DNA from: an uncultured Oscillospiraceae bacterium
Lineage (GTDB): Bacteria > Bacillota > Clostridia > Saccharofermentanales > Fastidiosipilaceae
Direction of reading: 5' to 3'
Assembly: GCA_964401615.1 (NCBI GenBank)
Contig: CAYNZF010000001.1
Location: 1-54,809 of the forward strand
Length of the DNA stretch: 54,809 bases
Under the pieces are notes generated by a model. The model did not search any database and was not told where the DNA came from. It was given only the letters and a program-made list of their open reading frames with translations. The first letter of the stretch is position 1; every line of letters starts with the position of its first letter. The translations under genes and the position numbers were made by a program. Positions 17,484 through 30,595 of this stretch are shown piece by piece.

Positions 17484-18401
17484 TTATGCCCATAGATTTT
17501 CGGGATATAGGCCTGCAGCTGTTTTTTCTTTGATTGCGGCTACAACATGCGGCTTGTCTTCTTTGTAGGTCACACCGAACCAAGTATCTCCACTTGTCAA
17601 AATCTTGACACGGGCTTTATTTTCACGAATCAACTGACTGACGGACAAAGGAATAAAAAACTCGCCTTTCATAGGATTATCGGCACAAATGCGGTCCAGA
17701 TGCACTGCAAACTGGCTCATCATCTCAGGTAATACACTGTGGTTAAACCCCCACAGGTTCATGCTCACAGGCGTGTCGTCGGGCAAAACGGTCCAGGTCT
17801 GTCCCTCATCTTCAGTAAATTTGATTCCATCGGGAAATTTCTCGATGCGCGTGCGCTCATTGATGTCGGCCAAATAACCGTCATCGCCGGCCACACAGAC
17901 CCCTCGTGCGACAGAACCATGTTCTGTCACCGTGTTTTTCAGCTTGAATCCAACCATGCAATACTCGTAAGCTTGTTCTTGATGGGCTTGCAGGTAATCG
18001 TAGACCACCTTGTATGCTTCTGGTCCGTAGTAGTCATCTGCGTTGATCACGGCAAAAGGACTGTCAATAATGTCTCTGGCCGCCAGCACGGCGTGACTGG
18101 TGCCCCAGGGTTTGGTCCGTCCTTCCGGTACGGTATAGCCCTCCGGCACGTCGTCAAGCTGCTGGTAGGCGTACTCGACATCCATTATTTTGGACAGGCG
18201 GTCACCGATGGCTTCTTTAAACGCCTTTTCGATTTCATGTTTGATAATAAAAATTACTTTTTTGAAACCAGCTCGGCGCGCGTCATAAATCGAATAGTCG
18301 ATGATGAGTTGATTATTGGAACCCACCGGATCAATCTGTTTCATTCCACCATAGCGGCTGCCCATACCGGCGGCCAGAACGACAAGAACTGGATCTTTCA
18401 T
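17484..18401 (-). CDS. sugar-phosphate nucleotidyltransferase family protein
   Basis: N-terminal LAAGMGSRYGGMKQ (G-x-G-t-R NTP-transferase loop), 305 aa. Confidence 0.75.
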   Translation of the reverse strand: MKDPVLVVLAAGMGSRYGGMKQIDPVGSNNQLIIDYSIYDARRAGFKKVIFIIKHEIEKAFKEAIGDRLSKIMDVEYAYQQLDDVPEGYTVPEGRTKPWGTSHAVLAARDIIDSPFAVINADDYYGPEAYKVVYDYLQAHQEQAYEYCMVGFKLKNTVTEHGSVARGVCVAGDDGYLADINERTRIEKFPDGIKFTEDEGQTWTVLPDDTPVSMNLWGFNHSVLPEMMSQFAVHLDRICADNPMKGEFFIPLSVSQLIRENKARVKILTSGDTWFGVTYKEDKPHVVAAIKEKTAAGLYPENLWA

Positions 18402-18500
18402 AGTATCCTCCTCATTTTTAACTCATAGCCGGTGAATTATCCCAGCCTTTTTGCTTTATTTTGGCACAAGCGGCTAGCTCAAGTAAGTACTTACAAAGCT

Positions 18501-19973
18501 TTATCCCCAGATTTTCTTAAATCTGGCGTAGGCCTCATCCCATGCCGTGGTCTCTTTCGGTTCGTAGAATTGCGTGGCAAAAGAATGACTGATGACTTCT
18601 CTGGCGTGGGTCAAATCTCTGATGTGACCGGTCGCGATGAGCTGAACCGCGCAGTTTCCCATCGCCGTGGCTTCAATGGGCCCGGCTACAAGCTGAGCAT
18701 TACAGGCGTTGGCCGTAAATTGTGAGAGCAAACCGTCTTTGGTCCCACCCCCCACCACATGCATCGTGTTGAAAGGGTGACCCACGACCTCTTCGATTTT
18801 TTCTTTGGTGCTGCGGTACTTCAAGGCTAAACTTTCATAAATGCAGCGCACGATGGCTCCGACATCTTGCGGGACCACCTGGCCGCTTTCCTGACAGCGT
18901 TGCTTGATTCGCCCCGGCATGTCTCCGGGTGGGGCGAAAATCAAATCATCCGGATCAATAAAGCTGACAAAAGCAGGTTTGGACAGGGCTTCTCTTTCCA
19001 TGTCCGCGTAACTCAGATTCATACCTTCTCTGATCCATTGTCTTCTGACTTCCTGAATCAACCAAAGGCCCATGATGTTCTTGAGGTAGCGAATTTTCCC
19101 CCCGTATCCGCCCTCATTCGTGAAGTTTAGACCGGCAGTCTGCTCATCGATCAAAGGGTGATCACTCTCGATTCCCATGAGTGACCAGGTTCCTGAACTG
19201 ATGTAGATGAAGTCTTTTTCTTTGGCCGGTACAGAAACCACGGCAGAAGCCGTGTCGTGCGAAGCGACACTGATGACCGGAACAGGCTTTAAACCAAGTT
19301 CTTTACAAAGGGCCTCCGAAAGATGCGCCAGCGGAGTACCGGAAGCCACAACTTCGGGGAATAGATCAGGTTTTATGCCGATGCGCTCGAAAAGTTCTTT
19401 GTCCCACTGTTTGGTCCAGGGATTAAGCAGGGCCGTGGTGGATGCGATGGAATATTCGCTTTGTTTTTTTTCAGTTAAAAAATAAGCCATCAAATCGGGG
19501 GTCAGTAAAGCACAATCCGCACGTTCGAGAATCTCAGGGCGCTGTTGCTGCAGAGCGTAAAGTTGGTAGATCGTGTTGAAATACATGAACTGAATGCCGG
19601 TACGCCCATAGAGTTCGTCATCCGGAACGATTTTCGCCACATCTGCGACCGCGGTCTTTGTACGAGCATCACGATAATGGACCGCATTCTCCAGTAAAAA
19701 GCCTTTCTCATCGAGTAAGCCGAAGTCAACGCCCCAGGTGTCAATACCCACGGATGAGAATGAAGTCGTATTTTTTGCTTTGATCAAACCCTGCTTAATT
19801 TCGAACAATTGGCGCAAAGTATCCCAATACATGGTGCCGTTAACGATCACCGGATCATTTGAAAAGCGATGTACTTCCTCTAAAACGATTCGTTCCCCGT
19901 CAAAACTACCCAACATCGCCCGGCCGCTGGATGCGCCGAAATCAAATGCCAATACTTTTACTTGCTTGTCCAT
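18501..19973 (-). CDS. FGGY-family sugar kinase, rhamnulokinase (RhaB)-like
   Basis: The N-terminal FDFGASSGR motif is typical of RhaB-type kinases. GGGGAGAG RBS before ATG 19973. The ORF-track start 20003 lacks an RBS. Confidence 0.8.
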   Translation of the reverse strand: MDKQVKVLAFDFGASSGRAMLGSFDGERIVLEEVHRFSNDPVIVNGTMYWDTLRQLFEIKQGLIKAKNTTSFSSVGIDTWGVDFGLLDEKGFLLENAVHYRDARTKTAVADVAKIVPDDELYGRTGIQFMYFNTIYQLYALQQQRPEILERADCALLTPDLMAYFLTEKKQSEYSIASTTALLNPWTKQWDKELFERIGIKPDLFPEVVASGTPLAHLSEALCKELGLKPVPVISVASHDTASAVVSVPAKEKDFIYISSGTWSLMGIESDHPLIDEQTAGLNFTNEGGYGGKIRYLKNIMGLWLIQEVRRQWIREGMNLSYADMEREALSKPAFVSFIDPDDLIFAPPGDMPGRIKQRCQESGQVVPQDVGAIVRCIYESLALKYRSTKEKIEEVVGHPFNTMHVVGGGTKDGLLSQFTANACNAQLVAGPIEATAMGNCAVQLIATGHIRDLTHAREVISHSFATQFYEPKETTAWDEAYARFKKIWG

Positions 19974-20015
19974 AATTCTCTCCCCTATTCGTTTGTGCAG
20001 CAAAGGCGTTATTTT

Positions 20016-29531: not shown

Positions 29532-29677
29532 TTTGTGTTTATTTTAACATTGACTCGCACAATAAGAAATGTAAATATTTTCCCGCCGTCGATTCATTTT
29601 TATTTTGCCTGATTTAATTTGATAAATTAACACAAAAGCCCTGCTCATGGGCTTCTTGAACTTATTTTACATGACAG

Positions 29678-29706
29678 TTTGATTGTATCAAAGCTTGTGT
29701 TATGAT
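29678..29706 (+). promoter_or_regulatory. candidate deoR-family gene promoter overlapped by a palindromic operator
   Basis: Palindrome TTTGATtgtATCAAA (29678-29692). TTGATT (29679-29684), 16-nt spacer, TATGAT (29701-29706), with TG at 29698-29699. Confidence 0.45.
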
Positions 29707-29836
29707 GCTGAAAAGACAACAGCAGTCCAAGTTAACACGAATTTACTCTGTAATTTTCACATTGAATATTTGATTTTTTTTATAAATTTTTCAGATCCCG
29801 GTGCCGGCCCGAACCCGAGCAGCTAAGGAGCAGCGG

Positions 29837-30595
29837 ATGATACAGGAAAGGCAAAACAGAATACTCAGCTACATCATGGAAAAAGGTGACGTTTCATTAA
29901 ACGAATTATTTGACCTTTACCCCGATGTTTCCAGCATGACGATTAGACGTGATTTGGACCTGCTTGAAAAGAATGCCCATATACAACGGTATCGCGGCGG
30001 AGCCAGACCTCTTTCCAGCCAGGCAATGATCAAGGAGCCCGCCTATATACAGCGTGCCGCAGAACGTGCCCAAAGTAAGCAGATCATCGCGGACAAGGCT
30101 ACTTTGATCGCGAATGAGGCCAGGTCGATCTACATTGATTCCGGCACGACTTGCGTGCAGCTTGCCTCCAACCTGCCCGACAATAATATCTTTGTGCTCA
30201 CACCGGCCCCTTATGTCGCCATCGCCCTGGCCAACAATCATAATGTGCGCGTCAACTTGACCGGCGGACAGCTGAATCGAGACACTTTTGCCCTATCCGG
30301 AAACAACGCTAAATCTTATACCAAAACCATCAATATCGATATCGCTTTCATTGGAGCTTCGGCTTGCTCGCTTAAGAACGGCTTCACCTGCGGGGATTAT
30401 CAAGAGGCGGAACTTAAAAAACTGATCATTCGAAAAGCCCAAAAAGTGGTGTGTTTGATGGATGTCAGTAAACTGAATTATTCGATGCCGTACACTTTTG
30501 CCACGGCTAAAAACATTGATGTTCTGATTACGGATAAACCGCTCCCTGAATCTTATTATCGTATGATGAAGAAGGCGAAAGTGCAGCTGATTTAA
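29837..30595 (+). CDS. DeoR/GlpR family transcriptional regulator
   Basis: N-terminal HTH (RQNRILSYIMEKGDVSLNELFDLYPDVSSMTIRRDLDLLE) plus a C-terminal sugar-phosphate sensor domain. AAGGAG lies 6 nt before ATG 29837. Confidence 0.9.
   Translation: MIQERQNRILSYIMEKGDVSLNELFDLYPDVSSMTIRRDLDLLEKNAHIQRYRGGARPLSSQAMIKEPAYIQRAAERAQSKQIIADKATLIANEARSIYIDSGTTCVQLASNLPDNNIFVLTPAPYVAIALANNHNVRVNLTGGQLNRDTFALSGNNAKSYTKTINIDIAFIGASACSLKNGFTCGDYQEAELKKLIIRKAQKVVCLMDVSKLNYSMPYTFATAKNIDVLITDKPLPESYYRMMKKAKVQLI

Follow-up and report, generated by a model that had tools for sequence, protein, structure and literature searches.

Closest described systems and comparison with the studied locus

The acetoin dehydrogenase system AcoA/AcoB/AcoC/AcoL, of which anaerobic versions exist in Pelobacter carbinolicus and Clostridium magnum, converts a methyl ketol (CH3-CO-CHOH-R) to acetyl-CoA and an aldehyde. 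Its genes often lie beside genes for diol dehydrogenases of the medium-chain (MDR) or short-chain dehydrogenase/reductase (SDR) type. Here we describe a stretch of 54,809 nucleotides from an uncultured Oscillospiraceae bacterium (assembly GCA_964401615.1, contig CAYNZF010000001.1), called the window below, in which a lipoyl complex of this class (E1, E2 and E3) is encoded among genes for an MDR, an SDR, a PHP-family phosphoesterase and an FGGY kinase, next to a DeoR-family regulator gene. We tentatively propose that this operon encodes a DeoR-repressed route for a 6-deoxy-L-ketohexose, in which the cleavage of a ketol phosphate would yield acetyl-CoA and tetrose-4-phosphate. All its parts belong to known families (an Aco- or pyruvate dehydrogenase (PDH)-class complex, SorE, SrlD/RhaW, RhaB/FucK, DeoR and a cog0613 PHP protein), and it is their combination that appears to be new. 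The operon may be described as one for rhamnose or deoxy sugars that additionally encodes a dehydrogenase pair of the sorbose type, a phosphatase and a fused-E1, acetoin-dehydrogenase-like complex. Full-text searches yielded no description of this module or of a characterised pathway with such a composition, in agreement with the first-pass annotation of this DNA, which knew of none.

Similar to acetoin dehydrogenase, the complex consists of an E1 dependent on thiamine diphosphate (ThDP), a lipoyl E2 and an E3, and the fused-E1 homologs of Rhizobiaceae pair with an AcoC-type E2. Unlike in that system, the alpha and beta parts of E1 are fused in the window (824 amino acids, aa), the catalytic domain of E2 is of the canonical 2-oxoacid_dh type, the regulator is of the DeoR type, and the neighbouring genes encode a kinase for deoxy-ketoses and enzymes of sugar phosphates; the proposed substrate would be a phosphorylated deoxy-ketose, not acetoin. 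The PDH complex with a heterotetrameric E1 has the same three-component architecture, and PDH models are the best NCBIfam matches for E1 and E2. However, the scores are far below the cut-offs, E1 is fused, the setting is a sugar operon, and homologs are present as extra copies in sugar clusters of Proteobacteria. In chemical logic only, the proposed reaction would be the oxidative reverse of that of 1-deoxyxylulose-5-phosphate synthase (DXS), whose ThDP chemistry joins an acetyl-level C2 unit and an aldose phosphate via a 1-deoxy-ketose phosphate; DXS belongs to a different branch of the ThDP family, performs no lipoyl or CoA transfer and is biosynthetic.

The L-sorbose pathway of the sor operon (Klebsiella, E. 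coli) relies on SorD and on SorE, which reduces L-sorbose-1-phosphate to D-sorbitol-6-phosphate (PMC12817954). The studied locus shares with it a SorE-like MDR, an SDR of the sorbitol-6-phosphate dehydrogenase type and the logic of a conversion from ketose-1-phosphate via hexitol phosphate to ketose-6-phosphate. In contrast, the window has no sorbose phosphotransferase system and no SorC regulator, its SDR is only 28% identical to SorD, and its kinase is of the RhaB/FucK type. Because of this kinase, and of the isomerase RhaA in relatives, the substrate is likely a 6-deoxy sugar, unlike sorbose. The RhaEW-type rha operons with the DeoR-type regulator RhaR, known from Bacillus subtilis and Chloroflexus (PMC3870299), resemble the locus in the DeoR regulator, the RhaB-type kinase and the RhaW-homologous SDR; relatives of the locus also encode RhaA, as well as a RhaE-like aldolase either as a separate protein or in fusion with the SDR. 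Unlike in these operons, the window SDR keeps only a tail of the aldolase domain and no aldolase or isomerase is encoded within the 54.8 kb. The rha genes listed in PMC3870299 include no MDR, PHP protein or lipoyl complex, and the text of that paper mentions neither lipoamide, nor a dehydrogenase complex, nor pyruvate dehydrogenase.

Conservation and gene order of the module

To compare the neighbourhood, 80 loci of E1 orthologs were taken from genomes and 80 loci of PHP homologs from metagenomes, and the neighbours were typed by clustering and tblastn. Counts are restricted to loci flanked by 6 kb or more on each side, namely 43 E1 loci and 23 PHP loci. Database homologs of the fused E1 number at least 8000, and the best 120, at 70-100% identity, were from Clostridia, Kiritimatiellia and Lentisphaerae. 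A DeoR gene was a neighbour in 31 of the 43 E1 loci (8 of the 23 PHP loci), the SDR gene in 24 (14) and the MDR gene in 22 (13), while PHP was a neighbour in 13 E1 loci and E1 in 12 PHP loci. Other neighbours were genes for lipoate ligase (10 E1 and 4 PHP loci), class II aldolase (AldII; 8 and 11), RhaA (4 and 4) and RhaB-type kinase (4 and 6). The immediate neighbours of PHP, over all loci, were SDR (30), E1 (19) and MDR (15).

The set of DeoR, MDR, SDR, PHP and E2-E3-E1 is kept through at least four gene orders in Clostridia, with parts of it in Kiritimatiellia and Planctomycetes. The variants include DeoR< MDR SDR E2 E3 E1 PHP RhaA AldII RhaB; AldII> DeoR< PHP< SDR< MDR> E2 E3 E1; MDR E2 E3 E1 DeoR SDR PHP; and SDR< PHP> XylB-like DeoR E2 E3 E1. 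In one sample from Kiritimatiellia, SDR-E2-E3-E1 and PHP-AldII lie on separate contigs. The same genes thus recur in dozens of independent loci from several phyla in shuffled order, and since the set survives this reshuffling the genes appear functionally linked, their grouping not being a matter of chance. Such an analysis of the E1 neighbourhood had been recommended in the first-pass annotation. Loci holding just DeoR-MDR-E2-E3-E1 also exist, which ties the MDR directly to the complex.

Lipoyl complex and its homologs in other catabolic clusters

The three subunits are those of a lipoate-dependent 2-oxoacid or acetoin dehydrogenase complex, with a ThDP-dependent E1 (motif GDG...NN), a lipoyl-lysine E2 (lipoyl site TDKA and DHRAVDG) and a redox-disulfide E3 (CLNEGC and HPTVSE). 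Compared with the NCBIfam PDH models, the scores were 208 for E1 alpha (cut-off 394), 229 for E1 beta (321) and 276 for E2 (445), so that none of them is a PDH equivalog, and all PDH and 2-oxoglutarate dehydrogenase E2 models stayed below their cut-offs for the window E2. In a structure-sequence search the beta part of E1 was nearest to the branched-chain 2-oxoacid dehydrogenase of Thermus and to the E1 beta of PDH; profile and structure-sequence matches of this kind do not separate PDH from acetoin-type E1. The window E2 is of the canonical 2-oxoacid_dh type, and the acetoin E2 model NF011457 matches only its lipoyl end. Genes for lipoate ligase and radical-SAM (LipA-like) proteins often neighbour the complex.

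The nearest homologs of the fused E1 in cultured bacteria are encoded on plasmid pRL8 of Rhizobium johnstonii 3841 (L173, record 81899-93416, plus strand) and on the Agrobacterium plasmid pAt15955 (L174), at 52-54% identity over 97% of the length. In both, the gene of the fused E1 precedes those of a 78-aa lipoyl protein and of an alpha/beta hydrolase; these two proteins match the two halves of NF011457 and by these matches are a split AcoC-type acetoin-dehydrogenase E2. Their neighbours are a psicose-epimerase-like protein, a fructokinase-like PfkB, a FucU-like mutarotase, sugar ABC transporters and SorC/DeoR-type regulators, and pAt additionally encodes LipA, a D-arabinitol-dehydrogenase-like protein and XylB. 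This supports the description of the complex as Aco-like, since the closest cultured homologs of its E1 adjoin an AcoC-type E2 within uncharacterised sugar clusters.

Fused E1 proteins with 70% identity are present in metagenome-assembled genomes of Accumulibacter and Propionivibrio (L017, L020) and in a 4.8-Mb assembly (L002), where the complex lies inside other catabolic clusters, with TRAP-transporter genes in L002 and L020. This gene content suggests that the complex was transferred horizontally into another kind of catabolic operon. The operon of L002 (5092-14165), downstream of an AraC-type regulator, contains a TRAP transporter, a divergent transaldolase, an IolO-like epimerase, E2, E3, a FabG-like SDR and a tartronate-semialdehyde-reductase equivalog. 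In further Clostridia different secondary-alcohol dehydrogenases adjoin the complex, namely MtlD-like proteins, TDH-like MDRs and BudC/FabG-like SDRs, sometimes together with a divergent transaldolase. Examples are L008 (12860-21892) and L075 (14949-19926), in which the unit DeoR-E2-E3-E1 precedes TDH-like MDRs, BudC/FabG-like SDRs and a divergent transaldolase; a GntR regulator and a Liv-type ABC transporter are also encoded in L008. The recurring partner is thus an enzyme that would make a ketone beside a hydroxylated carbon, which is the pattern of acetoin dehydrogenase. The position of the complex in the middle of a sugar operon with operator sites only upstream, together with its extra copies in catabolic clusters and its Rhizobiaceae homologs, suggests that it is unlike an independently transcribed housekeeping PDH.

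Sugar-phosphate dehydrogenases

The MDR is 51% identical to the annotated SorE of Klebsiella over 417 of 424 aa, 49-51% identical to SorE of Serratia and Citrobacter, and 54% identical to YggP of E. coli. The ligands of the catalytic zinc are present (C39, GHE67-69 with H68 and E69, and E158 of the EP motif), the cysteine cluster for a structural zinc is absent from the sequence, and the segment GVGPMG...VVTD suggests NAD as cofactor. By family, the MDR is a putative SorE/YggP-type ketose-1-phosphate reductase or hexitol-phosphate dehydrogenase, acting on a presumed sugar-phosphate substrate. A role as L-lactate or propanediol dehydrogenase feeding a PDH was dropped, given the 51-54% identity to SorE/YggP. 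On a plasmid copy in E. coli (L171), yggP belongs to the cryptic cmt operon, in the order cmtBA-yggP-glpX(yggF)-fumE-yggC; it adjoins there a homolog of class II fructose-bisphosphatase, a combination of SorE-like reductase and phosphatase as in the studied module.

For the SDR, the best NCBIfam model was NF009050 (sorbitol-6-phosphate dehydrogenase), with 227 bits and thus below the equivalog cut-off of 307, and the best match in the Protein Data Bank (PDB) was 5o3z (7e-44). The motifs TGSAQGFG, YAGGK and ADLN are present, with TGxxxGxG and YxxxK intact. These matches place the protein in the sorbitol-6-phosphate-dehydrogenase (SrlD/RhaW) type, as a relative and not an equivalog. Together with the SorE likeness of the MDR, this is in agreement with the first-pass annotation, which had called both dehydrogenases sugar-phosphate type.

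The SDR also shares 62% identity with the SDR part of an aldolase-SDR fusion of 655 aa encoded in L050. Such fusions, with the SDR domain at the C-terminus, occur in L050, L054 and L083 and resemble the RhaEW model only distantly (277 bits, cut-off 568). The 117-aa N-terminal tail of the window SDR aligns with the end of the RhaE-like aldolase domain of these fusions; a full N-terminal class II aldolase domain, as in RhaEW, is absent, and the SDR scores higher on the sorbitol-6-phosphate model than on the RhaEW models. In the three loci with fusions a type II pantothenate kinase (above the equivalog cut-off) and an AraC regulator with a PocR domain are encoded upstream of the MDR, followed by the order MDR, aldolase-SDR fusion, E2, E3, E1 and then rpsB and tsf. 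PocR domains are recognised from propanediol sensing.

PHP protein

The AlphaFold2 (AF2) model of the PHP protein (pLDDT 93.4) consists of a single PHP barrel with a helical insert, which ruled out an extra C-terminal domain. Its best Foldseek matches were 3o0f (BAD_1165), 2yb1 (Cv1693) and RNase AM, all cog0613 phosphoesterases; for 3o0f and 2yb1 the E value was about 1e-11 and the target-normalised TM score about 0.72. The metal-ligand pattern is HxH, E, H, D, and H49, H51, E106, H135, H200 and H391 are invariant in 35 sequences. As judged from the model, the protein is a cog0613-type metal-dependent phosphoesterase. Foldseek returned just cog0613 phosphoesterases and polymerase PHP domains, and gave no clue to the substrate.

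The frequent adjacency of MDR and PHP would also suit a redox valve, in which the two enzymes turn ketose-1-phosphate or dihydroxyacetone phosphate (DHAP) into a free polyol, as an electron sink for the NADH of the SDR and the complex. Reductase-phosphatase pairs are established polyol-forming sinks, and in E. coli the SorE-like yggP is likewise followed by a gene of a bisphosphatase family. However, such a valve would waste the ATP spent by the kinase of the same operon, and the PHP gene adjoins the SDR gene more often than the MDR gene; this explanation is very improbable.

Kinase, RhaA and class II aldolase

The FGGY kinase reached 497 bits on the rhamnulokinase model TIGR02627 (cut-off 528), and in the PDB it matched FucK of S. 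pneumoniae (4c23, 1e-102) and RhaB of E. coli (2cgj, 5e-99) about equally. By family it is predicted to be of the L-rhamnulose/L-fuculose 1-kinase type, with a 6-deoxy-L-ketohexose as the presumed substrate, as its earlier description as RhaB-like implied. In full operons such as those of L084, L085 and L094 the FGGY kinase adjoining RhaA is 56-60% identical to the window kinase, whose closest relative is the kinase of L088 (71%), a locus without RhaA. In relatives, RhaA scores above the two NCBIfam equivalog cut-offs (verified in L003), and such an equivalog in orthologous operons ties the module to L-rhamnose. The link to rhamnose drawn in the first-pass annotation is therefore supported, the cluster being part of L-rhamnose operons in relatives. 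The observation that the cluster lacks an aldolase and an isomerase is correct for the 54.8-kb window, where we found neither an aldolase gene nor rhaA, and an aldolase is also absent from the operon of the nearest relative; it does not extend to the orthologous operons, in which RhaA and class II aldolase are encoded.

The class II aldolases that relatives encode as free proteins have 370 aa, and their sole NCBIfam affinity is to the aldolase half of the aldolase/SDR fusions (40-55 bits). An assignment as MtnB-like dehydratase, OtnC-like decarboxylase or AraD-like epimerase found no support, the other class II models giving at most 30 bits.

Proposed pathway

L-rhamnulose is the likely substrate, formed from L-rhamnose by a RhaA encoded elsewhere in the genome, and L-fuculose is a possible alternative. 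The RhaB/FucK-type kinase would convert this 6-deoxy-L-ketohexose to the ketose-1-phosphate. The SorE-family MDR would then reduce the C2 carbonyl to give a 6-deoxyhexitol-1-phosphate, comparable to the action of SorE on L-sorbose-1-phosphate. The SrlD-type SDR would oxidise the hydroxyl beside the non-phosphorylated end, as in the conversion of sorbitol-6-phosphate to fructose-6-phosphate, and release 1-deoxy-hex-2-ulose-6-phosphate (CH3-CO-CHOH-CHOH-CHOH-CH2OP). Because the far end of the molecule is a methyl group, this product would be a methyl ketol like acetoin or 1-deoxyxylulose-5-phosphate, and it would be barred from glycolysis. The two dehydrogenases would in this way generate the phosphorylated CH3-CO-CHOH-R compound postulated in the first-pass annotation. 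By analogy with acetoin dehydrogenase, the ThDP-dependent E1 would cut the C2-C3 bond, the acetyl group would pass via lipoyl-E2 to CoA, E3 would form NADH, and the second product would be tetrose-4-phosphate.

The roles of the RhaE-like aldolase and the PHP protein are more speculative. One option would be an AraD-type epimerisation at C4 as a stereochemical repair; another would be the addition of DHAP to the tetrose phosphate to give a heptulose bisphosphate, which a bisphosphatase would turn into the monophosphate. Enzymes of the cog0613 type act on bisphosphates. The extended scheme is accordingly an anaerobic 6-deoxyhexose route with a SorE-/SrlD-like carbonyl transposition, followed by an oxidative, reverse-DXS cleavage to acetyl-CoA and tetrose-4-phosphate. 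In it the RhaE-like aldolase and PHP would feed the tetrose phosphate into the pentose-phosphate network (by aldol addition to DHAP with a bisphosphatase, or by C4 epimerisation), and the same fused-E1 family would perform analogous ketol cleavages in the clusters of Rhizobiaceae and other Proteobacteria. This scheme in its entirety is rather doubtful.

The proposed route would explain the position of the complex among these genes, its partnership with the MDR alone in some loci and the company of lipoate ligase. By the routes known in anaerobes, 6-deoxy sugars leave a C3 unit as 1,2-propanediol, or microcompartments are needed for its use. For strict anaerobes the gain from the proposed route would be the use of all six carbons without excretion of propanediol.

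Points against the proposed route and alternative explanations

Several observations weigh against this route. The stereochemistry of L-rhamnulose, derived with Fischer projections, predicts D-threose-4-phosphate and not D-erythrose-4-phosphate as product unless C4 is inverted, and D-threose-4-phosphate is not a central metabolite. Neither the PHP protein nor the RhaE-like aldolase of relatives is needed for any step. The specificity of E1 is not readable from its sequence, and the best NCBIfam models for E1 and E2, though sub-threshold, are of the PDH type. Furthermore, many relatives keep the RhaE-like aldolase, often fused to the SDR. The earlier idea that the complex replaces the aldolase step is therefore not supported, and given the chemistry of RhaEW the canonical aldolase route may share the operon.

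In that canonical route, a RhaE-like aldolase encoded elsewhere in the genome would give DHAP and L-lactaldehyde, the RhaW-like SDR would form L-lactate, and after conversion to pyruvate the complex would act as a PDH. RhaEW indeed yields DHAP and L-lactate (PMC3870299), the RhaEW-like fusions contain an SDR part homologous to the window SDR, and class II aldolase, RhaA and RhaB share an operon in relatives. The top NCBIfam matches of E1 and E2 are to PDH models, and the loci in which E2-E3-E1 stands alone would fit a common substrate. However, the canonical route assigns no role to PHP or to the SorE-family MDR, the gene most directly tied to the complex; the module encodes no lactate dehydrogenase, the aldolase is missing from the operon of both the window and its nearest relative, and the SDR scores better as sorbitol-6-phosphate dehydrogenase than as RhaEW. 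The nearest cultured homologs of the complex are moreover of the Aco type, in hosts of the Rhizobium/Agrobacterium type, which possess their own PDH. We regard this route as unlikely.

A further difficulty for the proposed route is that in 15 of the 43 well-flanked E1 loci accessory genes are absent from the surrounding 10 kb or so, the complex being alone or accompanied only by DeoR (this class was not counted for PHP loci). The neighbours of sampled stand-alone loci, typed with Pfam, are unrelated, for example GatB, murB, pseudouridine synthase and M20 peptidase. Most of the complex-only and DeoR-plus-complex loci form clades of their own in a neighbour-joining tree; nevertheless, L006 and L023, which hold only DeoR and the complex, nest in the clade of full operons, and the flanks of L023 are the same as those of L019. 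Stand-alone complexes are most easily explained by a common substrate such as pyruvate or acetoin. They are not decisive, because the module is often dispersed over several loci.

These loci would also suit two separate modules under one regulator, namely a sorbose-like path independent of the phosphotransferase system (L-ketohexose to ketose-1-phosphate, hexitol-6-phosphate and fructose-6-phosphate) and a PDH or acetoin dehydrogenase with no link to it but the common DeoR promoter. Kinase, MDR and SDR suffice for the known sorbose chemistry, the complex stands alone in many genomes, and the unit of DeoR and complex outlasts the loss of the sugar genes in L023 and L006. Left unexplained by two separate modules are the linkage of MDR, SDR and PHP to the complex through rearrangements and across phyla, the accompanying RhaA and SDR-fused aldolase, and the E1 homologs within sugar clusters of Rhizobiaceae; the kinase, in addition, is of the 6-deoxy-ketose type. 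We consider such a co-regulation of independent modules to be as unlikely as the canonical route. The remaining probability falls to something outside the explanations discussed here.

Organisation and regulation of the operon

All nine open reading frames (ORFs) described in the first-pass annotation were recovered with their families in the ORF listing and the Pfam and NCBIfam scans (Table 1).

Table 1. Predicted genes and regulatory features of the studied locus, with positions in the window
Feature	Coordinates	Strand	Remarks
DeoR-family repressor	29837..30595 (ORF opens 29801)	+	Likely ATG start 29837, giving 252 aa as in homologs
Divergent promoter/operator region	29447..29836		Four TGTTAA (TTAACA) half-sites and the best sigma-70-like minus-strand match
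TGTTAA half-sites in the DeoR-MDR spacer	29505, 29544, 29627, 29732		All in one orientation
Best sigma-70-like promoter match	29691-29664	-	Promoter scan; upstream of MDR
Zn-MDR, 424 aa	28172..29446	-	ADH_N and ADH_zinc_N domains
SDR, 390 aa	26896..28068	-	N-terminal extension of about 117 aa, then adh_short
E2 dihydrolipoyl acyltransferase	25432..26844	-	One lipoyl domain, E3-binding (subunit-binding) domain and catalytic domain
E3 dihydrolipoyl dehydrogenase	24014..25378	-	TIGR01350, 460 bits (cut-off 409)
Fused E1 alpha-beta, ThDP-dependent, 824 aa	21448..23922	-	E1_dh, Transket_pyr and Transketolase_C
Hairpin of 12 pairs with weak T tract, between E1 and PHP	21392..21419	-	Terminator-like scan
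PHP-family phosphoesterase	20016..21305 (ORF from 21338)	-	Likely start 21305, giving 429 aa as in homologs
FGGY kinase	18501..20003	-	Likely ATG start 19973; FDFGASSGR motif
Nucleotidyltransferase-fold protein	17484..18401	-	Weak NTP_transferase match; 99-bp gap to FGGY

The gaps between the genes of the cluster are 12-109 bp. The eight co-directional genes were initially taken as one cluster, which is supported for the seven genes from MDR to FGGY. The nucleotidyltransferase-fold protein has a close relative in 3pnn (6e-87), a structural-genomics 'conserved domain protein'. In L088, whose E1 is 77% identical and which is the only close relative with sequence extending to this position, the order is DeoR | MDR SDR E2 E3 E1 PHP FGGY, followed by a peptidase and not by an NTP-transferase. 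Because of this absence, the nucleotidyltransferase is probably a neighbour and not a member of the operon.

The DeoR gene product has HTH_DeoR and DeoRC domains. Four of the 17 TGTTAA sites of the whole window fall in the 354-bp spacer between DeoR and MDR, and no such half-site was found ahead of PHP or FGGY, including the gap between E1 and PHP. The location of the half-sites only upstream of MDR fits one DeoR-controlled operon, from MDR to at least the kinase; the operator half-sites and the promoter scan thus also place the complex inside a single unit, as had been supposed. In 13 other loci most DeoR-MDR spacers contain repeated TGTTAAC/TTAACA units that overlap a TGnTATAAT -10 box, with a second occurrence near the start of DeoR. 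The exact consensus operator TGTTAACAATTAACA is absent from the window spacer, for which the half-site enrichment alone holds. From the spacer sequences, TGTTAA-type repeats over the promoter are the probable binding sites of the DeoR protein, which a sugar phosphate would release. Partial termination or RNA processing may take place at the hairpin that separates E1 from PHP.

Four metatranscriptome runs contained a few contigs of 150-270 nt on E1, E2, FGGY and MDR, which demonstrates expression in wastewater communities; the contigs are too sparse to address the continuity of the operon. The window sequence was also found in metagenomes of wastewater, manure and bioreactors, and the closest proteins belong to uncultured Clostridia labelled Saccharofermentanales, Fastidiosipila and Clostridiaceae.

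Other features of the window

Apart from the DeoR-MDR spacer, TGTTAA/TTAACA sites cluster locally at a single place in the window, 9066-9163, which includes the palindrome TGTTAACA and is located just upstream of a gene for an ABC-F type ATPase (9148-10773). It may be a chance occurrence or a second DeoR target. A GFO/IDH/MocA oxidoreductase gene (11661-12611, plus strand) lies beside a DUF5662 gene (12613-13212, plus strand), 5 kb outside the operon, and its product clusters with a protein encoded inside the module of L024 (SDR< PHP> GFO-like, XylB-like FGGY, DeoR, E2 E3 E1).

About 1 kb beyond the DeoR side, past a DNA-alkylation-repair gene, the window harbours a gene for an oxaloacetate-decarboxylase beta subunit (31602-32717, minus strand). 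In L089 (616-1942) such a gene is followed by a small gamma-like ORF. The presence of the beta-subunit gene suggests an energy metabolism with a sodium-pumping decarboxylase in this organism. A T-box leader (36339-36588, minus strand; 99 bits, above the gathering score) was detected upstream of the three genes of an ABC transporter (33518-36254), which encode an ABC_sub_bind substrate-binding protein, a BPD_transp_2 permease and an ATPase. The window also contains a tRNA-Pro gene.

Implications

The module is very common in Clostridia of digesters, rumen and gut, with parts of it in Kiritimatiellia, Lentisphaerae and Planctomycetes, and the E1, PHP and MDR proteins have thousands of database homologs. 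The clusters of pRL8 and pAt offer genetically tractable models for the fused-E1 family. If the proposed route is true, it would represent a new deoxy-sugar pathway, in which the deoxy end of the sugar is converted to acetyl-CoA by a lipoyl complex, and sugar-phosphate ketols would be a new class of substrates for the 2-oxoacid/acetoin dehydrogenase family. It would also provide a reason for the presence of lipoate ligase and an NAD-linked lipoyl complex in strict anaerobes. Finally, it would assign functions to three large unnamed families, namely the fused E1 ('alpha-ketoacid dehydrogenase subunit alpha/beta'), the 430-aa PHP proteins and the SorE/YggP-like MDRs outside sorbose operons.

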